DNA of 64,000 nucleotides, from the NCBI GenBank assembly GCA_019661785.1, contig JAIFWP010000003.1, positions 31,009-95,008 on the forward strand, read 5' to 3'. Of the stretch, positions 4,631 through 63,014 are shown in pieces. The DNA is from Candidatus Parcubacteria bacterium. Its GTDB lineage: Bacteria; Patescibacteriota; Minisyncoccia; Phycocordibacterales; Zambryskibacteraceae. Under the pieces are notes generated by a model. The model made no database searches, was not told the origin of the DNA, and saw only the letters and a list, made by a program, of their open reading frames with translations. How positions within the stretch are numbered: the first letter of the stretch is position 1; every line of letters starts with the position of its first letter. The translations under genes and the position numbers were made by a program.

Positions 4631-4694
4631 TTCTGTTTATTATCTTTGAATTTTAGCATGAATTCTGCGTATGTTTATAGGCCTATTTTAGAGC

Positions 4695-4723
4695 TTGACA
4701 AATGGCTATATTTATGATAGTAT
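4695..4723 (+). promoter_or_regulatory. Sigma70-type promoter: TTGACA, 17 nt spacer, extended -10 TGA-TAGTAT. Member of a repeated promoter family.
   Basis: Sequence is cTTGACAaatggctatatttaTGATAGTATataagaag. The stretch TATGATAGTATATAAGAAG is identical to the promoter at 52271. Confidence 0.55.
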
Positions 4724-4784
4724 ATAAGAAGATGTACGGTTCGGGGATTTCCCCCGGAACGGAACTCCTGTACTGGAGCTTACA

Positions 4785-5240
4785 ATGCCGAGCAACGAGA
4801 TTAACCTGAGCAGCTCAGTCCTCACTTCCTTCGAGGTTGTGCGCAAGGCGCTGGAGATTCGCTACGGAGCTCAAATCAGCTTCGTAGGTTCGATGAAAAT
4901 CACGCCCGACGATCCGGACAGAACGCCCGGCTCGAAACGCCAGGTCGTTCTACAGACCAAGTTCGACACGATGAAGGGGACCCTTCGTATCATGGTCGAA
5001 CTGGGACTCAGCGCAATCGTGTTCCTCGAGTATATCGACTGCGCATGGCGCTTCGATTACGCCGAGGTGCGGGTGCAGAATCCGAACGACCAATCGGCAC
5101 GCACCGACGGGAGCTACCGGTACACTGTTTGCTATGCGAAGGAGCGCCAGTATGACACCCATCTGTTTGTCGGAGACCCGCTAGACAACATCAGCTATCG
5201 CGGCCATGATATGAGCGATAGGGTCGAAGTGAAGTGGTGA
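4785..5240 (+). CDS. Hypothetical protein (151 aa)
   Basis: ORF with GGAG 6 nt upstream of the ATG. A strong promoter lies upstream and an intrinsic terminator downstream. No recognisable domain. Confidence 0.55.
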   Translation: MPSNEINLSSSVLTSFEVVRKALEIRYGAQISFVGSMKITPDDPDRTPGSKRQVVLQTKFDTMKGTLRIMVELGLSAIVFLEYIDCAWRFDYAEVRVQNPNDQSARTDGSYRYTVCYAKERQYDTHLFVGDPLDNISYRGHDMSDRVEVKW

Positions 5241-5249
5241 GTGGCTCAC

Positions 5250-5298
5250 GCCGCCCGAGAGTTAGAGTCGCCCGACTCAACTCGGGCGGCTTTCTTTT
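5250..5298 (+). terminator. Rho-independent terminator
   Basis: 10 bp GC stem gccgcccgag/ctcgggcggc with a nested inner hairpin, followed by TTTCTTTT. Confidence 0.55.
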
Positions 5299-5932
5299 AT
5301 AAAACCAGTGCTAAGTGTTCGAGGATAAGCCTCGGCATGGCACCGGAGTCGCGGGCATAGGTGCGGAGTTCTAGGACCTTCTTCTGCATTTCAAGCGGGG
5401 CCCCATCGGCGCGGAGCTTGAGGAGGAGTGAGTCGAGGAATAAGGCCAAAGCACCGGCTCCCCTCTCTTCCTTCTCATCGGCGAACTTCTTGGCGAAGTC
5501 GATACGCTGCTTGAGAGTCTTCGTAAGAAATTTCTCCACCTCTTTGTTCTTGCCTAGTTCGCCTCCGACTCTAACTTGATGCAATCGTGACAGAAGCGTG
5601 GGCAGGAAGACGCTCGACTCCCTAGCCGAGATGAAGAAGTGGGTATTCGCTACTGGGTCCTCAAAGGTTTTGAGGAGCGCATTCTGCGCCTCGGAGGTGA
5701 ACTTGTTTGCATGTATGACGAAGACCTTCCGCGCCTTATCTCCTTTGCCAAAAGCCTTCTCTATAGCCCTGTCACTTAGCTCTCTCGCATCATCTACGCC
5801 AAAGACATCTTGAGAGATGACGAAGACATCCGGATTGCCGACAGGGCTAATGCCAGACTCATCAAAAACATCCTTGAGATACTCGTCTGCTTCATCTCGC
5901 TCACCTATTAGTAGATAGGCGTGATGCTGCAT
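5297..5932 (-). CDS. holB: DNA polymerase III delta-prime subunit (short form)
   Basis: 211 aa. Degenerate AAA+ clamp-loader motifs: HAYLLIG, VFVIHANKFTSEAQNALLKTFEDP, and SRL as sensor-1. Confidence 0.7.
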   Translation of the reverse strand: MQHHAYLLIGERDEADEYLKDVFDESGISPVGNPDVFVISQDVFGVDDARELSDRAIEKAFGKGDKARKVFVIHANKFTSEAQNALLKTFEDPVANTHFFISARESSVFLPTLLSRLHQVRVGGELGKNKEVEKFLTKTLKQRIDFAKKFADEKEERGAGALALFLDSLLLKLRADGAPLEMQKKVLELRTYARDSGAMPRLILEHLALVL

Positions 5933-9940: not shown

Positions 9941-10444
9941 TTATTTTACGTCATAGTGCATAGCCTCTCGTAAGATCCTAAGCCCTCTGTTAATGCGCAC
10001 GGACACAACATTGGCAGACTCCCCTATTATCTCTGCTATCTCCTTGGGCTTAAGTCCTTCTACGCAGCGCAGGTATACCGCGTCGCGGTAGGTCTCGTCC
10101 AAAGCGTTTATCTTCCTCACCAGGTTCTTGGCCTCCGCCTCTATCTCTATGCCGGCGGATGAGGAAAGGAGCTCGTTCTTGTCCTCGGAGCCCTCGATGA
10201 GCATGCTCTCTAAGGAGACTGCCTTCTTCTTCCTATACCAGTCAATGATGAGGTTCCTTGCTACAGCGAAGAGGAAGGCTCTGCAGTTCTTTATCTGCTT
10301 GTCCTTGCAGAGCGTATCCCAGAAGCGCATGAAGGTGTCCTGGGTCAAATCAAGGGCCAAATCATGATCAGAAGTGCGCAAAAGGCAAAATCGAAAGACC
10401 GAGTCGGCCTCTGTTCCATATACTTGTTCGAACTGTTGTTGCAC
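9941..10444 (-). CDS. RNA polymerase sigma factor, ECF subfamily (sigma-70 regions 2 and 4)
   Basis: 167 aa. Region 2 (DLTQDTFMRFW..NCRAFLFAVARNLIIDWYRKK) and a region 4 helix-turn-helix (YRDAVYLRCVEGLKPKEIAEIIGESANVVSVRINRGLRIL). Confidence 0.85.
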   Translation of the reverse strand: MQQQFEQVYGTEADSVFRFCLLRTSDHDLALDLTQDTFMRFWDTLCKDKQIKNCRAFLFAVARNLIIDWYRKKKAVSLESMLIEGSEDKNELLSSSAGIEIEAEAKNLVRKINALDETYRDAVYLRCVEGLKPKEIAEIIGESANVVSVRINRGLRILREAMHYDVK

Positions 10445-10625: not shown

Positions 10626-11318
10626 ATGTCTAGAATTACAAACAGATTTATGAGCATTCCGCTCGGCCTCTCGCTCCTAGCAATGGCAGCGACTGCAAAC
10701 GCACAAGTAGCTCAGCCTATGGTTGGCATCCAGCTCTTGAGCTCAGGACTTACTTCGCCATTGGTTGCATCCTCTACTGGTGCCACCATCGCGCGCCTCG
10801 TCCTCGACACCACAGGATCTCCTGAGGCAGTCAGGATCTCGAGCCTCCCATTCGCACTCTCACTCGGCAACGGCGCAGTAGCCTCGACCCTCACCAACTG
10901 TAGAGTTGCGAACGAGTCGAACTCAGGAGTCAACTTGAGCACCCCAACTGGCTCAACTTCAGGCTTGGTCTCCGGTCTCAACACCGTAACCTTGAGCTCG
11001 CCTCTCGTATTGCAGGCAGGCACCGTTACCACTCTTGACCTCGTCTGCGACCCTTCGGCAGGACTCGTCACTGGCGGTACCTTCACTGTAAGCGTGAACA
11101 CAGCTAACGTAGCAGCTACTGGCAACTCTACTGGTCTCCCAGCAGTCGTTACCGTACGCGGAGCTACTCCAGTAGTTATCCCTCCGGTCATCATCCCTAC
11201 TGTTCCTAACACAGGTGCAGGCGGCGATGCTTCCACGAACGTCGCTCTCCTCTTCGGCGCCATCACCTTGGCAGTCGCAGGTATAGCACTTACCAGGAAG
11301 ACAGCACAGGCTCGCTAA
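10626..11318 (+). CDS. Secreted surface protein with a C-terminal cell-wall sorting signal (VPNTG + hydrophobic segment + RK tail); putative sortase substrate
   Basis: Signal peptide ..AMAATANA|Q, a Ser/Thr/Gly/Val-rich body, and the C-terminus VPNTGAGGDAS-NVALLFGAITLAVAGIAL-TRKTAQAR. Confidence 0.7.
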   Translation: MSRITNRFMSIPLGLSLLAMAATANAQVAQPMVGIQLLSSGLTSPLVASSTGATIARLVLDTTGSPEAVRISSLPFALSLGNGAVASTLTNCRVANESNSGVNLSTPTGSTSGLVSGLNTVTLSSPLVLQAGTVTTLDLVCDPSAGLVTGGTFTVSVNTANVAATGNSTGLPAVVTVRGATPVVIPPVIIPTVPNTGAGGDASTNVALLFGAITLAVAGIALTRKTAQAR

Positions 11319-14159: not shown

Positions 14160-14190
14160 ATGAGTGTTAGTTACTTAGTGAGTATATACC
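14160..14190 (-). promoter_or_regulatory. Candidate sigma70 promoter plus structured 5' UTR hairpin for the DEAD-box helicase
   Basis: Minus strand reads cTTGACAagtaactcctgctggTATATAct. A hairpin aaacctcacgagcgaggttt lies immediately before the ATG. Confidence 0.4.
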
Positions 14191-14211
14191 AGCAGGAGTT
14201 ACTTGTCAAGT

Positions 14212-30204: not shown

Positions 30205-30351
30205 GGGTGATGAAGGAATCGGTCACAGGTCCTCGCGTACTGCGAGGCCTGCGACCCCGCCTCGCGCCGTCGCGCTCCGGCTTTCGATTCCTTATCGCCG
30301 CGCGCTGATGTTCCACTCATAAGCCGTTATAGGCTTCTTCGTGGATCATTG
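30205..30351 (-). repeat. tRNA-Trp-associated element: spacer, conserved core (GAAAGCCGGAGCGCGACGGCGCGAGGCGGGGUCGCAGG), hairpin, ACCUGUGACC, then a duplicated 3' end of tRNA-Trp
   Basis: Coordinates 30205-30227 repeat the last ~18 nt of tRNA-Trp (CGATTCCTTCATCACCCA versus the tRNA's CGATTCCTTCATCGCCCG). The core is shared with the elements at 62899-63014 and 40416-40503. Confidence 0.6.
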
Positions 30352-30692: not shown

Positions 30693-33407
30693 CTAAGATG
30701 ACCCCATTGCGTCGGTGGTAGAGTGGTCAAATACAACAGACTGTAAATCTGTCGCCCATTGGGCTTCGTTGGTTCGAATCCAACCCGGCGCACTCACATC
30801 GAAGGTAAATTCCCCACCCTTCACATCCACGACGACTGTGCCTCCGGAGAGAACCTTGTTGCCTATCATCATAGTGGCCACAGGGTTCAAAATCTTCGTC
30901 TGTATCAAGCGCTTGAGCGGCCTTGCTCCGTATTGCGGATTGTAGCCCTCCTTGCTCAAGGCCTCTAGCACGGCAGGGCTCACTATGAGCTCAATCTCCT
31001 TCTCTGCCAAGCGCTTCTTGATAGAGTCTATCTGGATGTTCACTATCTCCTTGATAGTATCTTGGCGCAGCACGTCGAAGACCGCTATCTCGTCGAGACG
31101 GTTTAGGAACTCCGGTCGGAACTGGTCTTTGAGCGCGTCGAGGACCTTCTCCTTTATGTTTTCATAATTCTCCCTCTCTCCACCCTTAGAGAAGCCGATG
31201 GACTGCATCTTGTCTATATAATTGGCGCCGACGTTCGACGTGAGGATGATGATAGTGTTCTTGAAGTTCACTACTCTGCCCTTGGCATCGGTAAGCCTGC
31301 CGTTGTCGAGCACTTGGAGGAGGATGTTGAAGACCTCTGGGTGCGCCTTCTCTATCTCATCGAAGAGGATAACCGAGTATGGCCTGTGGCGCACAAGCTC
31401 GGTGAAGTTGCCCGCATCCTCGAAGCCTACATAGCCAGGTGGCGCGCCAATGAGCTTCGACACAGAGTGCTTCTCCATGAACTCGCTCATATCTACGCGG
31501 AGGAGCGCCTTCTCGTCGTCGAACATGAACTCGGCCAAGGCTTTGGTGAGCTCTGTCTTGCCCACTCCGGTAGGACCAAGGAACATGAAGGAGCCGATAG
31601 GACGGTTGGGGTCTGAGATGCCAGCACGGCTCCTCTTCACCGTATCAGCAATCTTCTGCACAGCCTCGTCTTGGCCGACGATGCGGCGTCTTAGGAACTC
31701 TTCCATCCTGCCGAGCTTCTCTGCCTCTTCCTCAAGCATTCTTGATACTGGTATGCCGGTCCAGCGCGAGACCACATCGGCTATGTCTTGCTCGGTTATC
31801 TCTTCCTTCAATATGCGGCGCGAGCTTTGGAGCTTCTTCAGGCGCTTGCTCTTAGTGTCGAGGTCGCGCTCGAGCGCTGGTAGGCGCCCGTAACGAAGCT
31901 CGGCCGCTCGCGAGAGATCGGCTCGCGCCTCGGCTGCCTCGGCCTCTAGCCTCGTGGCTTCGAGAGCTTTCTTTATCTCCTTGATCTCGCCTACGGTCTC
32001 CTTTTCGTTCTTCCACTTCAGGTCTATCTCGGAGGTCTTCTCCTTGAGGTCGGCGATATCCTTCTCTATGACTTTAAGTCTTGCTGCGACTTTGGCACTC
32101 TTCGACTCCTTGCGCAGAGCCTCGCGCTCAATCTCCAATTTAACAACCTTAGAGTGAGTCTCCTGGAGCACAGGGGGCATGTTCTCAAGTGAGATTTTGA
32201 GGAAGGAAGCTGCCTCGTCGATGAGGTCTACAGCCTTGTCTGGGAGGAAGCGGTCTGTAATGTAGCGCGAAGAGAGGTTCACTGCGGCCTTGATAGCATC
32301 ATCGGTGATGTGCACGCCGTGGTAGAGCTCGTAGCGCTCTTTGAGTCCTCGGAGGATAGTCATGGCATCCTCGACGCTTGGCTCGTTGACGTAGACTGGC
32401 TGGAAGCGGCGTGTAAGGGCAGGATCCTTCTCTATGTGCTTCTGATACTCGCGTATGGTAGTGGCGCCGATAGCTCTCAGCTCGCCGCGAGCGAGAGGCG
32501 GCTTTAACATGTTTGACGCGTCGACAGAGCCCTCAGCTGCACCAGCGCCGACTATGGTGTGTATCTCGTCGATGAAAAGGATTATCTTGCCCTCGCTCTT
32601 CTCTATCTCTTTAATAATATTCTTCAAGCGCTCCTCGAACTCGCCTCGGTACTTGGTGCCGGCTATGAGGAGCCCCAAGTCGAGAGAGACCAGCTCTTTG
32701 TCGCGGAGTGACTCGGGCACATTGCCATTCGCCATCCTGAGAGCGAGACCCTCGGCAATAGCAGTCTTACCTACTCCAGCCTCGCCAATGAGTATTGGGT
32801 TGTTCTTCGTCCTTCTAGAGAGTATCTGTATGATGCGTGAAATCTCTTGGTCGCGTCCTATAACAGGGTCGAGCTTGTTAGCCTTAGCGAGCTTAGTGAG
32901 TGAGCGAGTGTATTTGGAAAGGGATTTGAACTTCTTCTCCTGCTTGGGCTCGGCTGGGCCAGCGTGCTTCAACTCCTCGACGAGCTTCACCACAGTCTGT
33001 CTATCAATCTTGAACTTAGTCAGGAGCTCGCGCGACTCACCTTGTACCTCAAGGACTGAGAGGAAGAGATGCTCTGTAGAAACAAATTCGTCTCCAAGTC
33101 CCTGAGCCACCTTGGAAGAAGACTCTATGATATGAGCTAGCTCTGGAGTGAGATATATCTGATATGAGGGCGAGAGGGTTTGGCTGGCTTCAGGATTCTC
33201 TATAGCCTCAAGCACTGAGTCAGTAAGTAGCAGAGTATCGACATCCATCTTGTCGAGTATGGAAATGACCATGCTCTCCTCTTGGAGGATAAGCGCTGCG
33301 AGGAGATGCATCGGGTTTACATGGTTCTGCCCACGCTCAATAGCGAGCTCATGAGCTCGGCGTATGGCCTCCTTGGCTTTGGTCGTGAAATTGCTGAAAG
33401 GTTGCAT
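30693..33407 (-). CDS. clpB: Chaperone ClpB (AAA+ disaggregase with M-domain). The annotated 3' end reads antisense through tRNA-Tyr, so the true stop is uncertain.
   Basis: Two Walker A/B modules ([10 protein letters not shown].., [10 protein letters not shown]..), a long coiled-coil insertion and Clp N repeats. The last ~30 residues are the reverse complement of the tRNA. Confidence 0.85.
30709..30792 (+). tRNA. tRNA-Tyr (anticodon GUA), long variable arm
   Basis: Acceptor GCGTCGG/CCGGCGC, anticodon loop CUGUAAA, T-loop TTCGAAT. Confidence 0.85.
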
Positions 33408-35279: not shown

Positions 35280-36776
35280 ATGAAGGTAGCTCGTCCTCCG
35301 GTAGTAAGTCTTTTGGGCCACGTCGACCACGGCAAGTCGACGCTTCTTGACTATCTCCGCCAGGTCAACACTGTCGACAATGAAGCTGGGGGCATCACCC
35401 AACACGTTGCTGCATACGAAGTCAGGCACAAGCGCGACGATGGCACCGAGGCGAAAATCACTTTCCTCGACACTCCGGGCCACGAAGCCTTCCACGCTAT
35501 CCGCGCTCGCGGAGCTCGCGCGGCTGATATTGCTATCCTTGTCGTATCTGCCGAGGACGGAGTGAAGCCGCAAACCATAGAGGCGGTTAAGTGGATACGC
35601 GCGGAGAAGATACCCATGCTCGTTGCCATGACCAAGGTCGACAAGCCGAGTGCCGACATAGAGCGCGTGAAGCAGTCTCTCGCGGAGAACGATGTCTACG
35701 TCGAGGGATACGGCGGTGATGTGCCCTTCGTGCCAGTGTCAGCCAAGACCGGCGCAGGCGTGAAGGATCTCCTCGACATGATCCTCCTCCTCTCAGAGCT
35801 CGAACATTGTACCGGCGAGACAGACAGATGGGGCTCAGGAGTCATTATTGAGAGCAGACTTGATGCGAAGAAAGGCATTACCGCAGTGGCTGTGGTAAAA
35901 GATGGCACCGTGAAGGTGGGCCAAGTAGCTGCCTCTATAGGTGCCGTAGCGCCACTGCGCTTCATACTCGATGCTGAGGACAAGCAAGTGGACGAGCTCA
36001 CCTTCTCCTCCCCAATACAGATCATCGGCTGGGACAATCCACCACTCTCCGGAGCAACCTTTGAGATATTCGACGACAAGAAAGCAGCTCAGTTCTATGC
36101 CGACTCTGAAGCTGCCAAGTACGCTGTGGCCCCGAGACAGACTCGTGAGACGCCTATAGACGAGAACATGGCAACGCTCCCTATCATCATCAAGGCCGAT
36201 GCAGCAGGCAGCCTTGAGGCAATTGAGCACGAGCTAAAGAAGCTTAGCCACGAGCGCATTGCTATTAAGATAGTGAACTCCGCTGTCGGCACCATATCTG
36301 AGGGAGATGTGAAGACCTCTATGACGACTCCTGGCACTATCATCTTCGGCTTCAATACTAAGATAGACCCGCAGGCCGGAGCCTTGGCTGAGCGCACTCT
36401 CGGAGTGACGATAGAACTCTACGAGATTATCTACAAGCTCACCGAGAGAGTGGAGGAGCTGCTTAAGGAACAGGAACCTAAGGTAGAAACCGAAGAGGTG
36501 ATGGGCCGAGCCAAGGTGCTGAAGGTCTTCTCTAAGACGAAGGACAAGCAAGTCCTCGGCGCACGAGCCGAGAGCGGCATGCTTGAGAAGGGCTCAACAC
36601 TTAAGATTATGCGCCGCGATGAGGAAGTCGGCCGCGGCAAAGTGAAGGAGCTCCAGCAGTCTAAGGTGGATGTCGAGACCGTCTCTGAGGGCAACGAGTT
36701 CGGCGCCCTTGTAGAGTCGAAGGTCGACATAGCACCGGGAGACTACCTTGAGCGCATCGTCACTGTCACTAAATAA
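35280..36776 (+). CDS. infB: Translation initiation factor IF-2 (G-domain to C-terminus; no long N-terminal region)
   Basis: G1 [10 protein letters not shown]3 DTPGH, G4 TKVD. Confidence 0.9.
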
Positions 36777-40587: not shown

Positions 40588-40690
40588 CATAGTTTGTATT
40601 TGACTTTTTTATATTTCGTGATACAGTCGAGCTAGTACCGGTCTTTAACACTGCTACACACTTATATGCGGCTCGTCCGCGGAGGGAGGG

Positions 40691-41977
40691 ATGGGAACCA
40701 TCGTATTGTTTCTGATTCTGCTCGGTATCTCCTACTTTGCCGTAGGATGGTTCGTGCGGAGATGCGCAAGAAGGATGCTGCCATCGGGCAAGAAGGATGC
40801 GGAAGGCAACGAAATTATGGTGCCGAAGCCTCTCTTCTGGTACTTCCAGCCGGCCAACACCACTGCTTACCAGCAGAAGGCAGGCAACGATGCCGACTCA
40901 ATCGGCAAAGGCTCGAAGGCCACACCAGGAAAAGGGAGCGGCATCCTGCATGTCACCCACGAAGTGCCGGGCAAAATCCTCGACAGGAGCGACCCCGACA
41001 ACACCAAGTGGACATTCGTTGACCGCGCGGCAGGCCAGTTTGAGACAGGCCACAGGAGTCGCAGAGGGCTCTTCTACTACCTCTACGGCGTGCACAGCCT
41101 GGGTCCGTGGAACGAGCTCCGCACCGTGAAGGTGCGCGAAGTCCGCCTCACTATCGACGAGGACGAGCTCAAGGCCTATCGCAAAGACATGGCGAAGTGG
41201 GAAGAAGGCGGCAAAGAAGGCCCAAAGCCCAAAGAGCCGACCTACCAGGAGCATGTCAAGGACTACGAAACCCTCTTCCCCTACTACTCACGCGAGCATG
41301 GGGTTGCGGTTCGGAAGTCCGAGACGACGGGCGCTTACCCGCTCGATGTCTACAACAATGTCATCTACGAGGAGACCCACCCAGTCAAGGCCCGGCTCGA
41401 AGTGGCCGACCCCAACGCTACGCTCGCCGAGTTCGTCGAGCAAAGCGTCAACACTGAGACGGGTGGTCACGTACCAGAGTACTTCGTCTCCGAGAAGCTC
41501 GTGAACGAGACTACCACTCTCACTTTGAGGGAGCGGAAGGCGGCGTTCATCGATACTGTTACGGCAGAAGTCGCCAAACAGGCTCTCGAAGGCATCGGAC
41601 TCAAGGTGAAGAAGTTCATCCTCTACTCCATCGACATGGACGAGGAGATGCGGAGGCTCCTCGAGCTTCAGCAGACGACGGAGCGAGAGGAGCAGGCACG
41701 GATACTCACCGCCAGACGCGAGGTCACGGTCGCAATCCAAACAGCTCGCAAAAGAGCCGTTGAGGCTGCAGGCGAGCGGCGAGCGGAAATCGAGTTGAAC
41801 ACGGCCGAAGCTGACCGTGTGGCGAGAGTCATCCTGCCTATCGCGCGTGAACCCCGGGCAGCCGCTGTACGATTCTTCGAGGCTTACGAGAACAACAAGA
41901 CAGTAACCTCATTCGCCATGGGTGGGGACTTGTCCAAGATGATGCCTGACAACATTATCGTTCCAGTGAGCAAGTAG
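40691..41977 (+). CDS. Membrane-anchored protein with a C-terminal coiled coil; SPFH/band-7-like (tentative)
   Basis: N-terminal TM and a C-terminal Ala/Arg/Glu-rich coiled coil. GC-richer than the window average. Confidence 0.4.
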   Translation: MGTIVLFLILLGISYFAVGWFVRRCARRMLPSGKKDAEGNEIMVPKPLFWYFQPANTTAYQQKAGNDADSIGKGSKATPGKGSGILHVTHEVPGKILDRSDPDNTKWTFVDRAAGQFETGHRSRRGLFYYLYGVHSLGPWNELRTVKVREVRLTIDEDELKAYRKDMAKWEEGGKEGPKPKEPTYQEHVKDYETLFPYYSREHGVAVRKSETTGAYPLDVYNNVIYEETHPVKARLEVADPNATLAEFVEQSVNTETGGHVPEYFVSEKLVNETTTLTLRERKAAFIDTVTAEVAKQALEGIGLKVKKFILYSIDMDEEMRRLLELQQTTEREEQARILTARREVTVAIQTARKRAVEAAGERRAEIELNTAEADRVARVILPIAREPRAAAVRFFEAYENNKTVTSFAMGGDLSKMMPDNIIVPVSK

Positions 41978-41993
41978 CAGTTTGCATTACTAG

Positions 41994-42024
41994 GGCCGGG
42001 AGACCTCGTCTCCCGGCCCTTTTG
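41994..42024 (+). terminator. Intrinsic terminator
   Basis: GGGCCGGGAGAcctcgTCTCCCGGCCCtttt. Confidence 0.65.
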
Positions 42025-42025
42025 C

Positions 42026-42053
42026 TTGACAATACATTTTATAATGATATAAT
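42026..42053 (+). promoter_or_regulatory. Sigma70 promoter TTGACA-N16-TGa-TATAAT
   Basis: cTTGACAatacattttataaTGATATAATccc. Confidence 0.55.
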
Positions 42054-42100: not shown

Positions 42101-43063
42101 ATGTGGTTCAGAAAAAAGGATGCGGGGCCCAAAAGGCTCATGCCGAGGGGGCCCAAAGCCAAAAAGCCGAAAAGCCGCTTTAGGCTCTGGATGTCCGACC
42201 TTCCCTCGCGTGCAAGCACGAGGCTCGGGAAGAGCGCTGCATCGGCGAAGATCTTCTTCGCCGCTCGGTGGGCAAAGCTCGTGCCTTGGCTCAAGAGCAA
42301 GGCTCGCGTGCCAGACACAGGCCTGCCTGTCGGGATTATCGTGCAAGGCGTAGTAGCCATTGTAGTCGTCGCTATCCTGTGCTGGAAGGCGAGCGCGGCA
42401 ACCACGCACACGTGGGATAGCCTCAAGGCAATTCGCTGGCCCGTTCTGTCCCTGGCTTGGATTAGCGGAGTCGCCGTCGTACTCATGGCCTTGCTACTTA
42501 TCACTCTTGTCGTCATGAGACGCCGAGAGGCTAAGACAGCCCCAGCGCCGGAAGGACGTCCGTCTGCATCTACGTCAGGAACTCCCCCGCCGAAAAAGAA
42601 GAACGCGGGCAACGCACTCATTAACTTGGCGTTCAGCCTCGCAATCGTGGCGGCGCTCGTCTTCTTCGGTGTCCGCTTCTGGCAGATTTATCCAGAAGAG
42701 AAGCAGAAGGACAGGGAGTCGAAGGAGCGAATCGCCATTGCAGAGAGAGACCGAGTGGTCGGCTGCAAGACGAACGCCTGGGTAGACGGCTGCTCTACCC
42801 GTCCGAGGAAGTTCACCCGCATGATTTATGCGAGCGAACCGACCGAGGTCATCATGAATCCGGGTGACAAGCTCGTGTGGGTGGTCGACATCGGCCGCTG
42901 CAATGACTTGCTGACCTCGGCGCGCATGGAGGGCGAGTACAAGATCAGATCTTTCCGTACCAGACCGGGTGTCGACTCGCTGCAGGTGACCTTCCTCCTG
43001 CAGAAGACCGATGAACCTGAGAACCGCAAATGCGGCAAAACACCTACGACAGACATGTCGTAG
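42101..43063 (+). CDS. Hypothetical membrane protein (3 TM), Lys/Arg-rich N-terminus
   Basis: Start at MWFRKK with GGAGG upstream. No known domain. Confidence 0.45.
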   Translation: MWFRKKDAGPKRLMPRGPKAKKPKSRFRLWMSDLPSRASTRLGKSAASAKIFFAARWAKLVPWLKSKARVPDTGLPVGIIVQGVVAIVVVAILCWKASAATTHTWDSLKAIRWPVLSLAWISGVAVVLMALLLITLVVMRRREAKTAPAPEGRPSASTSGTPPPKKKNAGNALINLAFSLAIVAALVFFGVRFWQIYPEEKQKDRESKERIAIAERDRVVGCKTNAWVDGCSTRPRKFTRMIYASEPTEVIMNPGDKLVWVVDIGRCNDLLTSARMEGEYKIRSFRTRPGVDSLQVTFLLQKTDEPENRKCGKTPTTDMS

Positions 43064-43095
43064 GTGTTTTTCTTTCCATTTATCTCCTTGTCAGC

Positions 43096-43373: not shown

Positions 43374-43751
43374 CTAGTTAACTGTAGGGTTGATGCCAGG
43401 AACAGTAGGAAGCGAGCCGGATGAACCGCCAGTGCCGATACCAAGCGAGCTAGCTACGAACTTGACGAGGCCCCAGACTGCGACCATCACGAAGAGGGTG
43501 ACGATGCCGTAAATCATAATCTTCTTGCCCTCTTCCTTAGCCTCTTCGTTGCCTGCATTGAAGATGAACTTCATGAGACCCCAGAAGAATCCGAGGAGCG
43601 CAAGACCTACTACTATAGGAAGTGCTGTACCTACCCATCCAGCGACCGTGGTCATGAATGCGCTAAGGCCGGTCGTAGTGTTGGTAGTGGTTATCTGTGC
43701 CATGGCCAAACCCGGAGCGAGAGCGGCAAGAGCGATAATAATCTTTTTCAT
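43374..43751 (-). CDS. Small secreted/membrane protein, paralog 2 (signal peptide plus two hydrophobic helices; TrbC/VirB2 pilin-like)
   Basis: Signal peptide ..GLAMA|Q, core LLGFFWGLMKFIFNAGNEEAKEEGKKIMIYGIVTLFVMVAVWGLVKFV. Confidence 0.6.
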   Translation of the reverse strand: MKKIIIALAALAPGLAMAQITTTNTTTGLSAFMTTVAGWVGTALPIVVGLALLGFFWGLMKFIFNAGNEEAKEEGKKIMIYGIVTLFVMVAVWGLVKFVASSLGIGTGGSSGSLPTVPGINPTVN

Positions 43752-43872: not shown

Positions 43873-44181
43873 CTACTTCGAAATAGGCACCTGGATAATA
43901 CCCGACACAGTGCCGCCAGTGCCGATGCCAAGCGACTCGGCTACGAACTTGACGAGGCCCCAGACTGCGACCATCACGAAGAGAGCGATGATACCCCAGA
44001 GCATGACACGCTTGCCCTCCTCCTGCGCCGACTCATCGCCCGCCTTGAAGACAAACTTCATGAGTCCAAAGAGGAAGGCTAGAAGCGCCAAAGCTACTGT
44101 AAGCGGTATAGCTCGGCTGATTATGGTATTGGTTGCCTGTATGGCTTGGAGTATGCCGGTTGCTGCTAGTTGGTTGAACAT
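43873..44181 (-). CDS. Small membrane protein, paralog 3
   Basis: Core LLAFLFGLMKFVFKAGDESAQEEGKRVMLWGIIALFVMVAVWGLVKFV, about 75% identical to paralog 2 over this stretch. Confidence 0.6.
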   Translation of the reverse strand: MFNQLAATGILQAIQATNTIISRAIPLTVALALLAFLFGLMKFVFKAGDESAQEEGKRVMLWGIIALFVMVAVWGLVKFVAESLGIGTGGTVSGIIQVPISK

Positions 44182-47004: not shown

Positions 47005-47153
47005 ATATTAATTGTATCCTACTTCGCTCTCGCTACGCAGAACAAGTCAGATATTTGACAAGCATAGATAATAAGGATACAGTGAGCTGAGTAAGCACAA
47101 GCGTGGACACACGTCTTCACTTGGAGTCACCCGAACCTTTAGGAGATTTGCAG

Positions 47154-50549: not shown

Positions 50550-51100
50550 TCCTCTTTTAGCACTACTATATCACCCTCCTTGCCCTCAAGATCCTTCTTC
50601 TTCACTACGAGTTTGTCGAGATGCTCGCCGTCCTCGCCAGCTTCCTTCAAGAACTTCTTTAGGCTCTCGGGCGAGTAGCTTATAGGTATGATGAGCGACG
50701 GCTCAAGAGAGACAGCGAGCTTGTATGCAGGAGCCGCCTCTAGCGTATCGACTGGCACGAAGAGGATATCGATGTCCTCTAAATTTTCTATTGTCTCTGC
50801 ATTTAAAGCAGGATTTGAGAGCGAACCAAGAAAACACAAATTCAATCCTTCAAAATTTATAAGATAGACAGTATTTATCTTCCCATCCTTGCCCTCAGAG
50901 AGAAAACCTTTAACCGAGATGTCCTTAACCTCGTACTCGCCAGGACCCGAAATGACGAAGCCCTTGCCCTCGACTGCAGAACCCCCAGTGCTCATGAGAG
51001 TGAGGTCGGCGTTGCCTCGGTTCGAGGTAGGGTTCACCGCAAGAGACAGGTCTCCTTGGGAAATCTTCACAGATTCCCCGCCCTGATAGCTGATTATCAT
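50546..51100 (-). CDS. MBL-fold metallo-hydrolase-like protein (degenerate)
   Basis: Beta-lactamase-fold-like pattern of short beta strands with Asp/His positions. Weak call. Confidence 0.4.
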   Translation of the reverse strand: MIISYQGGESVKISQGDLSLAVNPTSNRGNADLTLMSTGGSAVEGKGFVISGPGEYEVKDISVKGFLSEGKDGKINTVYLINFEGLNLCFLGSLSNPALNAETIENLEDIDILFVPVDTLEAAPAYKLAVSLEPSLIIPISYSPESLKKFLKEAGEDGEHLDKLVVKKKDLEGKEGDIVVLKEE

Positions 51101-51171
51101 GGCCCTATTTTAGCATATTTCCCGAGTTTCCGCCACCACAAATAACCTTATTCTTAGGCTTGATTTAATCC

Positions 51172-51200
51172 TTGACAAATAGGCTTAATTATGATAGTAT
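51172..51200 (+). promoter_or_regulatory. Sigma70 promoter of the TTGACA-N17-TGATAGTAT family
   Basis: cTTGACAaataggcttaattaTGATAGTATagaaggag. Confidence 0.55.
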
Positions 51201-51257
51201 AGAAGGAGAATCGGAGATGTGCGCAGTTCCCCACAACCAAGCTACAAGGAGGACGGG

Positions 51258-51692
51258 ATGCCCGCAAACAACAAAGGTTGGGCCCAGGCGATTGGCTACC
51301 TCATCGCCTTTGTGATGATGATGATCGGAGCTGGAGCCCTAGGCAGATACATGCATGGCCGCGAACGCGACCAGGCAGAGCGGGACAGCGCGCGAAAGTC
51401 CGCTGCCACCGACTCAGTCGTCGGTATCCGCGTCATCTGCGGGAAAGTGAAGAGCTTCGAGCGCATCACCTCCCACGAGTTCCCTGTCGTGCACATTATG
51501 ATGGAGAACGGCGATACGTACCGCCTCCTCGGCGATGTCGGGACGAACATGCCTCCCGTGCTCAGCCCGAGCGTCATCAGGTACATGGTGCCTGAGTGGG
51601 TGGAGGAGCATTCCTTACTGCACGCAGGCACCGGCGGGGTAATCCTCACCATGATGCCAGTTCGGAACTGCGACCAGCACAAAAAGAAGTAG
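51258..51692 (+). CDS. Hypothetical small membrane protein (144 aa, one TM)
   Basis: Start at MPANNKGW with AAGGAGGA 5 nt upstream. The track's GTG start at 51219 is an over-extension. Confidence 0.5.
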   Translation: MPANNKGWAQAIGYLIAFVMMMIGAGALGRYMHGRERDQAERDSARKSAATDSVVGIRVICGKVKSFERITSHEFPVVHIMMENGDTYRLLGDVGTNMPPVLSPSVIRYMVPEWVEEHSLLHAGTGGVILTMMPVRNCDQHKKK

Positions 51693-51706
51693 ACACGCAG
51701 CTTTAC

Positions 51707-51736
51707 GCCCCACTCTCACCGGTGGGGCTGCTTTTT
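51707..51736 (+). terminator. Intrinsic terminator
   Basis: GCCCCACtctcaccGGTGGGGCtgctttttt. Confidence 0.7.
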
Positions 51737-51752
51737 TATAACTTTTATCTCT

Positions 51753-51781
51753 ATTGACAATAGATAGATACTATGATAATC
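51753..51781 (+). promoter_or_regulatory. Sigma70 promoter (same family; -10 is TGATAAT)
   Basis: aTTGACAatagatagatactaTGATAATct. Confidence 0.5.
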
Positions 51782-51840
51782 TGGTCCCAGAACCAATGTA
51801 GTCCTAGTCTCACGCAGTCCCCCATCCGCACGGAGGATTC

Positions 51841-52165
51841 AATGATTCGCAAGTTCGCCACATCGATCGCACTCGCAGTTCTCTTTCTCGTCGCCGGCCT
51901 GTCTTATTTGAAGGCGCAGGGCGTCGAGCCGGAACCCTGCCTGAAGGCCATCAAGGTCTCAGAACTCCAGAAGAATGGCAAGCGCACGATCACCATGGCT
52001 TGGCCATCCGATACGACGAAGACCAGAACAATCGAGCGCAAGAATCGCCGCCCGACCATCGTCGTCGGCAAGTTCTACTGGCTGACCTACGACGGCGACC
52101 GTATCCAGGATATCTACCAGGGCAAGGGCTGTCCGGCGACGAAGTCTGGCAGCGTGAAGAAGTAG
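51841..52165 (+). CDS. Hypothetical small secreted protein (108 aa)
   Basis: Start at MIRKFATSIALAVLFLVAGLSYLKA with GGAGG upstream and a signal peptide. Confidence 0.55.
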
Positions 52166-52229
52166 CTTGCGGTTCCCCCACCGCGTGAACCCCTGATCCC
52201 GACATGAATCGTCGTCGGGACGGGGCATA

Positions 52230-52255
52230 AACCCAGGAAACTCCTGTGGTTTTTT
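52230..52255 (+). terminator. Intrinsic terminator
   Basis: CCAGGAaactCCTGTGGttttttt. Confidence 0.55.
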
Positions 52256-52270
52256 TCATCTTTAAAATCC

Positions 52271-52299
52271 TTGACAAAAAATATATAGTATGATAGTAT
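52271..52299 (+). promoter_or_regulatory. Sigma70 promoter (family member; 19 nt identical to the 4695 copy)
   Basis: cTTGACAaaaaatatatagtaTGATAGTATataagaag. Confidence 0.6.
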
Positions 52300-52305
52300 A
52301 TAAGA

Positions 52306-52839
52306 AGGTTGATAAATCACTTGGCAAAGCCTTGCGGCTGAGCTAGTGTAGTCATAGGCAAGATGTACCCTGAATTTGTCCCCTCTCGTACGATCGGAGG
52401 AGCTCTAGGGGCCGTGATTGTGCCGACGTAAGGGTCCTCGCACGAGGAACCAAGCAAGGCGCTAATGGCTTACTTATAGCTCAAGTTCGATACAGAGCGG
52501 ACCGTTCGTCCCTGCTTTGCTCGATGTGCAAGGCAGCGCCTTCGTTCACCCCCACTGCGAGGCCTCACGGCAACATGCAGACAAGACGATGGTGAAGCAT
52601 CGATAGGTTAAGGGCAATACCTTAAGCCCCAGCGCATGAGTGGTGAGACAGAGGGATTAAAACCCCTGCCGCGTAACCACACCCTGAGCTGAAGGCCGTC
52701 GGATCGCTAAAAACGCCGGCCACCGATTGAGAAGACGAATAGTCAGTAGCACGGGTCTGTCCCGCGGCCGCCATCCTCATGGTGGACGGCCGCGGGACAG
52801 AACCCCAGCAGTTACGCATGTTGCGTAGCTGTTTTTTTT
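52306..52839 (+). ncRNA. Candidate structured non-coding RNA, about 535 nt, family unassigned
   Basis: A consensus promoter lies 7 nt upstream. No plus-strand ORF longer than 35 codons in any frame. Multiple GC-rich hairpins, including a perfect 14 bp stem CUGUCCCGCGGCCG/CGGCCGCGGGACAG. It ends in an intrinsic terminator GUUACGCAugUUGCGUAGC followed by U8. Confidence 0.55.
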
Positions 52840-52944
52840 ATGTTAATTTACGCAGGTTCCTTACTAGAACCCGCTCTCCGATATCCCCTCTCGCCTAGGC
52901 AAACACTCTGAGGCTCGAGGACCGGAAGCGGCTTTAAACTCAAA

Positions 52945-54120
52945 ATGGCATTATTCGGCAGGAAAAAGGCTCCCGTCGCAGAGGCGTCGGACGAGCAGGT
53001 AGAGGTTAAGCAAGCAGTCAAAGAGAAGGTAAAGAAAGAGATCGCGGCGCCTGAGGCAGACAACTCCCTCATGGGCTCGCTTGTGGCCAAGTCTCCTAAT
53101 CCTCCCAAGGTGGACGATGTGGTCGAGGGTCCAGTGCTCTCTATAGACAAGGGTGCTCTATACATTGACCTTCCTCCCTTCGGCACAGGTATCATCTACG
53201 GACGCGAGTTCATGAACGCGCGCGACATTGTGAAGCGCGTCAATGTGGGCGACACCGTCGCGGGCAAGGTGGTCGGCATGGGCGGCAAGGATGGATACAT
53301 AGAGATATCTCTCAAGGAAGCTCGCCAGGCTCTCATCTGGAGCGAGGCTGAAGAGGCTATCCGCGACAAGCGCATATACGAGCTTGCTATCACCGACGCC
53401 AACAAGGGCGGACTCATACTTAACTGGCAAGGCATACCTGGCTTCCTCCCCGCTTCTCAACTCAAGCCAGAGCACTATCCTCGCGTTTCTGACGGCGACA
53501 AGGACAAGATACTCGACGAGTTGCGCAAGCTCGTAGGAGAGAAGCTGTCCGTCACTATCATCGGTGCTACTCCTAAGGAGGGCAAGCTCATCTTCAGCGA
53601 GAAGAGCCCAGAGTCGAAGAATAAGGAGAACATCATCGCCAAGTACTCTCTCGGCGACGAGCTCACTGGCGAGGTCACTGGACTCGTAGACTTCGGAGTC
53701 TTCGTTAAACTCGAAGAGGGACTCGAAGGCCTCGTGCACATCTCGGAAATTGACTGGGGCCTTGTAGAGAACCCTAAGGCCATGTTCAAAATCGGCGAGA
53801 AGGTGAAGGTCAAGATTATCGAGATTAAGGACGACAAGATATCTCTCTCCATCAAGGCCTTGAAGGAGAACCCATGGAAGGAGGCTTCGGAGAAGTATCA
53901 CAAGGACGAGGTAGTGGACGGCGTCATCATCAAGTACAACAAGCATGGAGCTCTCGCCTCACTCGAGGAGGGCGTCGCGGGTCTCGTGCACGTCTCTGAG
54001 TTCGGCTCTGAGGATAAACTAAGGGAGAAGCTAGAGATGGGCAAGACCTACAGCTTCAAGATAACCCTCTTCGACCCTAAGGAGCAGAAGATGGCACTCT
54101 CGTTCGTAGATAAAAAGTAA
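52945..54120 (+). CDS. rpsA: 30S ribosomal protein S1 (four S1 domains)
   Basis: Repeated S1 OB-fold motifs (G.V.G.V..G.FV). Confidence 0.88.
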   Translation: MALFGRKKAPVAEASDEQVEVKQAVKEKVKKEIAAPEADNSLMGSLVAKSPNPPKVDDVVEGPVLSIDKGALYIDLPPFGTGIIYGREFMNARDIVKRVNVGDTVAGKVVGMGGKDGYIEISLKEARQALIWSEAEEAIRDKRIYELAITDANKGGLILNWQGIPGFLPASQLKPEHYPRVSDGDKDKILDELRKLVGEKLSVTIIGATPKEGKLIFSEKSPESKNKENIIAKYSLGDELTGEVTGLVDFGVFVKLEEGLEGLVHISEIDWGLVENPKAMFKIGEKVKVKIIEIKDDKISLSIKALKENPWKEASEKYHKDEVVDGVIIKYNKHGALASLEEGVAGLVHVSEFGSEDKLREKLEMGKTYSFKITLFDPKEQKMALSFVDKK

Positions 54121-62898: not shown

Positions 62899-63014
62899 AT
62901 TGGCGGAAGAGGTGAGATTTGGTCACAGGTCTCGGCTTGCTAGCCAAGCCTGCGACCCCGCCTCGCGCCGCCGCGCTCCGGCTTTCAAATCGTCCTCGCA
63001 AACGGGTTTTGCTG
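62899..63014 (-). repeat. tRNA-Ser-associated element: conserved core plus hairpin plus ACCUGUGACC plus a duplicated tRNA-Ser 3' end including CCA
   Basis: 62901-62923 = CAAATCTCACCTCTTCCGCCA repeats the last 18 nt of tRNA-Ser. The core GAAAGCCGGAGCGCGGCGGCGCGAGGCGGGGTCGCAGG is about 95% identical to the copy at 30205-30351. Confidence 0.6.

Follow-up and report, generated by a model that had tools for sequence, protein, structure and literature searches.

A stretch of 64,000 nucleotides from a Candidatus Parcubacteria bacterium (the window) carries several near-identical promoters with a perfect -35 box, which raises the question of whether these form a set of their own or are what any promoter of the lineage looks like. 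A sequence-only reading had taken them for a co-regulated, very highly expressed group that serves small hypothetical genes and a candidate ncRNA and possibly stems from a duplicated promoter cassette. It had added that dozens of similar promoters in front of ordinary genes would make them simply the lineage's consensus sigma-A promoter.

The window is cellular and encodes ClpB/C, GyrA, TopA, IF-2, SerRS, RRF, S1, FtsZ, ParB, and 12 tRNAs. The best relatives of its GyrA, at 88-89% identity, are from Zambryskibacteria, Parcubacteria, and Paceibacterota MAGs (CPR). IF-2 (35280-36776) is short, with 498 aa that comprise the GTPase, IF-2, and domain-2 parts and lack the typical bacterial long N-terminal region, which would fit a reduced genome. 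The gene for tRNA-Tyr (30709-30793, +) overlaps the 3' end of the ClpB/C ORF (30693-33407, -) by ~30 codons on the opposite strand. A 57-nt GC-rich direct repeat occurs at 30242-30298 and 62943-62999 (86% identical); the copies lie just 3' of the minus-strand tRNA-Trp and tRNA-Ser genes, in ORF-free gaps of 678 and 251 nt, respectively. Two adjacent small genes, 43374-43751 (-) and 43873-44181 (-), share a 186-nt repeat with 78% identity and thus look like tandem paralogues.

Complete promoters in the window

The promoters first described at 4695, 51172, 52271, and 42026 are present as reported, and a fifth, placed at 51753, starts one base later, at 51754 (Table 1). Each is oriented toward a transcription unit, and the distance from the site to the ORF or ORF-free unit is 24-70 nt. 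The products attributed to the five sites also agree with the earlier description: proteins of 151, 144, 107, and 320 aa, of which the second has a TM segment, the third a signal peptide, and the fourth 3 TM, and one stretch that is ORF-free. The extended -10 flank reads TATGA at 4695, 51172, 51754, and 52271 and AATGA at 42026. The p151 promoter additionally has a T-rich upstream region, the discriminator ATAAG, and an AAG/AGA start region at ~4729-4732.

TTGACA followed by N15-19 and TANNNT occurs nine times in the window, compared to 1.31 +/- 1.02 expected from dinucleotide shuffles. The 12-mer TATGATAGTATA is found three times (0.01 expected from shuffles), in all three cases in register with TTGACA. 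The 19-nt identity claimed for the 4695 and 52271 copies is exact: TATGATAGTATATAAGAAG occupies both 4713-4731 and 52289-52307, and the copy at 51190-51208 differs from it at two of 19 positions. The TAGTAT hexamer of these three copies matches the consensus -10 at four of six positions.

The five promoters had been called the only ones with a full consensus in 64 kb, none of them driving a housekeeping gene. The first statement is too strong, as further TTGACA-N17 sites exist at 14209 (-), 47055, and 37920, and a TTGACT-N16 site exists at 40600. The second holds for most sites, which precede mainly small, non-housekeeping, envelope proteins, but the site at 14209 (-) precedes a DEAD-box helicase gene.

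Table 1. Promoters, genes, and terminators of the units discussed, with positions in the window
Feature	Position	Strand	Details
Extra 665-bp segment	4639..5303	.	Holds p151 together with its promoter (4695) and terminator; absent from L190
frr promoter, divergent	4650..4658	-	Extended -10 without -35; TGCTAAAAT
p151 promoter	4678..4732	+	TTGACA 4695-4700, N17, TATG-A, TAGTAT 4718-4723
p151, ORFan cargo, 151 aa	4785..5240	+	NCBI KW800_02320, 'Candidatus Parcubacteria bacterium'; GC3 0.73
p151 intrinsic terminator	5264..5301	+	5264-5293 and T-tail GGCTTTCTTTTATAAAA; T-tail common to L192
DEAD-box helicase gene promoter	14181..14209	-	TTGACA-N17-TATACT, no TG
ATP-grasp enzyme gene promoter	37920		TTGACA-N17, weak TACTTT
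SPFH/Band-7 gene promoter	40600..40627	+	TTGACT-N16-TGATACAGT, with TG
SPFH/Band-7 membrane protein gene	40691-41977		Homologues in 10 loci
320-aa gene promoter	42026..42053	+	Perfect TTGACA-N16-TGATATAAT (TATAAT with TG); directly 3' of terminator 41992-42020
320-aa protein, 3 TM	42101..43063	+	Fast-evolving; no Pfam match above threshold; terminator 43037-43070
171-aa secreted protein promoter	47055..47083	+	TTGACA-N17-TACAGT, no TG
MBL-fold gene promoter	51107-51115	-	TGCTAAAAT; divergent from p144 promoter
p144 promoter	51155..51209	+	TTGACA at 51172, N17, TG; TGATAGTAT at 51192-51200
p144, 144 aa	51258..51692	+	ATG 51258; N-terminal TM segment; no Pfam match
p144 terminator	51707..51735 (or 51707-51728)	+	
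p107 promoter	51754..51782	+	TTGACA-N17-TAATCT with TATG
p107, 107 aa	51842..52165	+	Signal peptide; no Pfam match
p107 unit terminator	near 52250		T-run
Promoter of ORF-free unit	52266..52307	+	TTGACA at 52271, N17, TG; TGATAGTAT at 52291-52299
ORF-free transcription unit	52306..52842	+	Hairpin 52753-52804; terminator 52807-52833 and T-run

An extended -10 default and a minority class

Genes were called in the window and in 80 gyrA-centred loci of relatives (1.3 Mb), and 714 upstream regions were classified and compared with composition-preserving shuffles. The extended -10 alone is the most frequent arrangement (267 regions; 121 +/- 10 expected). An exact TTGACA with N16-18 and TGnTAnnnT occurs in 27 regions compared to 0.1 expected, a 5/6 -35 with TG in 34 (0.8 expected), and an exact TTGACA without TG in 14 (1.3 expected). 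Counted over the whole window, TGNTANNNT shows no excess (78 against 81.6 expected); the signal appears only within upstream regions.

A reading of the upstream region of each transcription unit in the window showed that its housekeeping genes mostly follow the frequent pattern. TGnTAnnnT without a recognisable -35 precedes frr, parB, folD, rpsA, and the IF-2, aminotransferase, and MBL-fold genes, as well as the genes for tRNA-Gln, tRNA-Trp, tRNA-Cys, and tRNA-Glu; tRNA-Ser has the same box and a 5/6 match, TTAACA, at -35. In the extended -10 class, the logo carries almost zero information at -35, whereas in the full class it reads as a T-rich stretch, TTGACAAAta, N, TATGATAnnAT, aAa, and AGA, the last at +7 to +9 past the -10. 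Judged by these motifs, the predicted default promoter of the clade is the extended -10 alone, and a consensus -35 is a rare add-on that marks a minority class. Extended -10 promoters that work independently of a -35 are known as the E. coli galP1 type and are common in Streptococcus, Campylobacter, and Mycoplasma. The defaults of this genome (frr, IF-2, rpsA, tRNAs) resemble them in having TGnTAnnnT without a -35, whereas the flagged sites differ by adding a perfect one. We found no promoter or start-site studies for CPR in the literature.

The genes behind full promoters differ from those behind the default. Among the relatives (window excluded), 21 of 24 full-promoter genes have few homologues (present in <5 of 80 loci, with conservation scored within +/-10 kb of gyrA) compared to 47 of 257 genes with only an extended -10 (Fisher p = 9e-12); the 24 examples are not independent, since ~18 of them lie at three orthologous positions. 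On the same basis, again with the window excluded, a hydrophobic N-terminus is predicted for ~70% of the full-promoter genes and for 28% of the others (p = 1e-5).

These counts bear on the two plainest alternatives. The sites could represent a generic sigma-A consensus that stands before all kinds of genes and defines no distinct set. The motif is indeed the textbook consensus, TGnTAnnnT is common to housekeeping promoters, and some core genes have a -35, namely the DEAD-box helicase at 14209 (-) and gyrA, which carries a 5/6 -35 promoter in four distant relatives (L046, L054, L067, L077). But exact TTGACA with TG stands at only 27 of 714 transcription-unit starts, the extended -10 class is nearly devoid of -35 information, the tRNA, frr, IF-2, and rpsA promoters of the window mostly have no -35, and the cargo is strongly biased toward non-conserved genes with a hydrophobic N-terminus. 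Dozens of full promoters in front of ordinary genes were therefore not seen, because housekeeping and tRNA genes, here and in the 80 relatives, mostly use the -35-less extended -10. We consider a generic consensus improbable. Chance promoter-like strings could be expected in AT-rich intergenic DNA, and the intergenic regions do have a GC content of 37-45% compared to 53% overall; with 27 sites observed against 0.1 expected in shuffled upstream regions and nine against 1.3 in the window, fixed positions and orientations relative to genes, and conservation at orthologous positions, this explanation is effectively refuted by shuffle controls and orthology and retains a negligible probability.

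The full promoters also resemble a known architecture. Published descriptions include a TRTG motif for Firmicutes, AG/AT-rich discriminators for Terrabacteria, start sites centred 7 bp past the -10, and a 3-bp "start" element (bioRxiv 10.1101/2025.01.23.634641). The full promoters show the TTGACA, 17-bp spacer, and TRTG-n-TAnnnT of canonical sigma-70/SigA promoters with an extended -10 of the Gram-positive form, and share with Firmicutes and Terrabacteria promoters the A/T tract by the -35, the AG/AT-rich discriminator, and a purine start ~7 bp past the -10. They differ from canonical SigA promoters, in which the -35 is general if degenerate, in that the -35 is confined here to a small subset of units, in a CPR host. 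The shared 19-mer is the sum of known modules (TRTG, -10 hexamer, discriminator, and purine start), because the full-class logo shows the same elements.

We put at roughly 0.7 the probability that the full promoters are of the housekeeping-sigma type of Parcubacteria-type CPR, as a predicted minority class that would head insulated units with lineage-specific cargo. They would be recognised by a sigma-A of the sigma-70/SigA type, and transcription would start 7-9 bp past the -10 in the purine AGA region, consistent with the conserved AGA. The combination of an extended -10 with a consensus -35 would give the tightest binding of RNA polymerase and could drive high constitutive expression. Since every core element is present (a T-rich upstream region, TTGACAAAt, a spacer of 17 bp or, once, 16 bp, TRTG, TAnnnT, an A/G-rich discriminator, and AGA), RNA polymerase probably binds them more tightly than any other promoter of this genome, which otherwise depends on the extended -10. 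The full promoters are thus a distinct class in strength and architecture, not a different kind of promoter. We infer from the motifs that the units they head could be very highly expressed, as the sequence-only reading had proposed. Genes for tRNAs are normally among the most heavily transcribed. Most of them have no -35 here, so a -35 may not simply mean the strongest promoter.

Insulated units at size-variable junctions

Each full promoter of the window heads an insulated monocistronic unit of promoter, ORF, and terminator, and terminators flank every unit. Conserved housekeeping genes border the units, which as a rule are antisense or divergent to these neighbours and lie at junctions that vary in size (holB|frr, MBL|rpsA, gyrA|methyltransferase). 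At the gathering threshold, Pfam gave no match for any cargo protein. The GC3 of the cargo ORFs is 0.72-0.80, compared to a long-gene mean of 0.64 +/- 0.06 and 0.70 for rpsA. Such values speak for genuine coding sequence and would fit either high expression or a history of their own.

At the holB|frr junction, the closest relative (L190, frr 92% identical) has a gap of 25 nt. A more distant relative (L192) has an insert at the same junction that encodes a 179-aa ORF. The promoter regions of the window and L192 align as AGCTTGACAAAT.GCTA.AT...TATG.TA.TAT, whereas p151 and the 179-aa ORF give no BLASTP alignment at E <= 100. The only homologue of p151 among 5.8 billion proteins is itself. L190 and L192 have equivalents of the frr promoter, TGTGATAAAAT and ATGATAAAAT; the frr neighbourhoods in the gyrA loci are uninformative because the relatives they come from are distant and differ in gene order. 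A hairpin in the p151 5'-UTR was considered as an mRNA-stabilising element and set aside, as its folding is not significant (z = -0.8).

The MBL|rpsA junction spans 37 nt to 7.4 kb among relatives. In 16 of them, a promoter with TTGACA/T and TRTGnTAnnnT points toward rpsA, mostly 37-124 nt from the MBL start (~210 nt in L020), and the 51172 promoter of the window has the equivalent position relative to the MBL gene. Downstream of these MBL-divergent promoters, the genomes have unrelated content, be it lipoproteins, possible LysM-like proteins, small ORFs, or sequence without an ORF. No homologue of p144 was found in the 80 related loci.

The unit at 52306-52842 had been put forward as a candidate ncRNA. 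It is indeed ORF-free from promoter to terminator, and its GC content is flat across codon positions, but no homologue was found in 80 related loci (blastn, nhmmer), and the excess structure in its body is modest. Folding gives z = -6.9 for the whole unit, due mainly to two 3' hairpins, -2.2 for the body, and -1.0 for the antisense of the body. No Rfam family matched at the gathering threshold, the E-value mode gave weak miRNA-like matches to the hairpin only, and ARAGORN was negative. When a profile was built from the ORF-free junction transcripts of L009, L011, and L035, its matches were confined to the promoter and the rpsA leader. The unit is best described as a putative ORF-free cargo unit that may be either a lineage-specific RNA or decayed cargo.

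Stretches of 0.5-0.9 kb without a convincing ORF also separate the MBL-divergent full promoter from rpsA in four relatives (L009 8161-9024, L011 1499-2131, L035 7992-8958, L040 419-948). They contain only short low-complexity frames and are weakly conserved even among L009, L011, and L035. The rpsA leader (window 52794-52933) is kept in L003, L005, L009, L011, L012, and L035 as ...GGCAAACACTCT..GAGGC..GGACCG.AAG, and the sequence upstream of it varies; an extended -10 that belongs to rpsA itself, TGTTAATTT, is located at 52841. The conserved leader may be an S1 autoregulatory leader.

The 47055 unit, which encodes the 171-aa secreted protein, is antisense and occupies the gap that separates gyrA from the methyltransferase gene, which ranges from 12 nt to 3.5 kb among relatives. 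Antisense promoters of the form TTGACAAA... (TTGACA) occur at this junction in the close relatives L001, L002, L003, and L005, and the 171-aa protein is weakly similar to its L003 counterpart (32% identity, E = 5e-6). Full promoters are also conserved across many relatives at the SPFH gene and the adjacent 3-TM gene. The orthologous SPFH promoter reads TTGACTTTT...TGTGATAAAAT in several of them, and a promoter of the 42026 type stands before positional orthologues of the 320-aa gene in at least 10. The comparison of orthologous promoters thus bears out the sites as genuine and positionally conserved.

Since relatives keep full promoters at the same junctions with differing cargo, it is the promoter that is conserved and the cargo that turns over. 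The cargo is lineage-specific and consists of ORFans, of small proteins that are secreted or in the membrane, or of non-coding sequence. A bolder proposal is that holB|frr, MBL|rpsA, and gyrA|methyltransferase are fixed expression slots of Parcubacteria, in which a resident promoter of maximal strength and a terminator tail would bracket a segment that unrelated ORFan genes or non-coding DNA replace time and again; we regard this as speculative and on balance unlikely. Replacement might proceed by an unrecognised cassette exchange or recombination, or the slots might be cradles for de novo genes. The arrangement recalls integron-like or expression-slot systems in that the same conserved promoter precedes unrelated genes at one chromosomal junction across genomes. 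It differs from them in that a repeat scan of two junctions detected no attC-like repeats, no integrase occurs among the Pfam-scanned subset of ORFs, and every unit comes with a promoter and terminator of its own, whereas integron-like arrays have one promoter for the array.

Origin of the shared block and meaning of the class

The likeness of the three TAGTAT promoters could reflect common descent instead of function, either as copies of a recently duplicated or mobile cassette or as sites homogenised by gene conversion. The duplicated cassette suggested earlier finds weak support in a similarity of 76-79% identity over 42-55 nt that reaches 17 nt upstream of the -35, and the 12-mer, present three times here, never occurs in 1.3 Mb of related genomes. 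But the similarity is concentrated in functional blocks, the -35 block (aatCCTTGACAAA) and the -10/discriminator/start block, and the spacers of the three copies largely differ. Neither terminal inverted repeats nor target-site duplications were found at 4639-5303 or in the region 51080-52960, and many relatives have full promoters at the same junctions; the sites are therefore old. When metagenomes and viral contigs were scanned with the 19-mer TATGATAGTATAKAAGRAG, all matches were unrelated: none of 101 metagenome-contig and eight viral-contig matches was similar to the window, and two had a -35. They comprise one repeated, mostly human-gut sequence, AT-rich stretches, many able to encode YDSIEE, and other singles. 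The orthologous promoters in the L003/L192 genome, TATGGTATTATGTAGAAGT and TATGCTACTATTAAAGCAG, have a different -10/discriminator block, yet the 4695 spacer is orthologous to the L192 spacer, which suggests homogenisation of the 3' block within the genome. Common descent is thus possible, though we doubt that it accounts for the likeness as a whole. We take the three TAGTAT copies to be paralogous or homogenised within this genome. A degree of such homogenisation, or an optimum specific to the genome, is likely; a recent wholesale duplication is not.

The co-regulation also proposed for these sites found no support, as no shared element was detected beyond those of standard sigma-A promoters, and orthologous promoters differ in the -10 and discriminator. 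A regulon under a dedicated transcription factor or alternative sigma would have to recognise the shared TATGATAGTATAKAAGRAG block. This near-identical block does overlap the -10 and start, is partly palindromic (TAT..TA..ATA), and occurs in a window that also encodes an ECF-type sigma factor. However, the block decomposes fully into clade-wide standard sigma-A elements, the L192 and L003 orthologues do not keep its non-consensus positions, and the sites at 42026 and 51754 do not have it. ECF (group 4) promoters have -35 and -10 elements such as GAAC ... CGTC, and the motif is unlike these in reading TTGACA / TGnTAnnnT. We consider such a regulon very improbable. The ECF-type sigma factor itself (9941-10444, -; Sigma70_r2 and r4_2, 167 aa) is divergent from a 230-aa ORF (10626-11318, +) with no Pfam match.

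The promoter type to which we assign the full promoters, that of a housekeeping sigma with a complete -35 and extended -10, is already known. Modestly new is the finding that, across the clade, the complete promoter goes with insulated, fast-turnover cargo at junctions that stay fixed. CPR/Patescibacteria account for much of bacterial diversity, and the survey provides a testable promoter grammar for one of their clades, with the extended -10 as default and the -35 as a rare add-on. The full motif flags lineage-specific envelope and ORFan genes, which are plausible candidates for host interaction. In practice, the motif could help to find accessory genes that are probably well expressed in MAGs of this kind, or could serve as a strong part for driving expression in CPR or Gram-positive-like hosts. 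If the junctions do act as expression slots, the reduced genomes of episymbionts could use them to express a fast-changing repertoire for the cell surface and host interaction.
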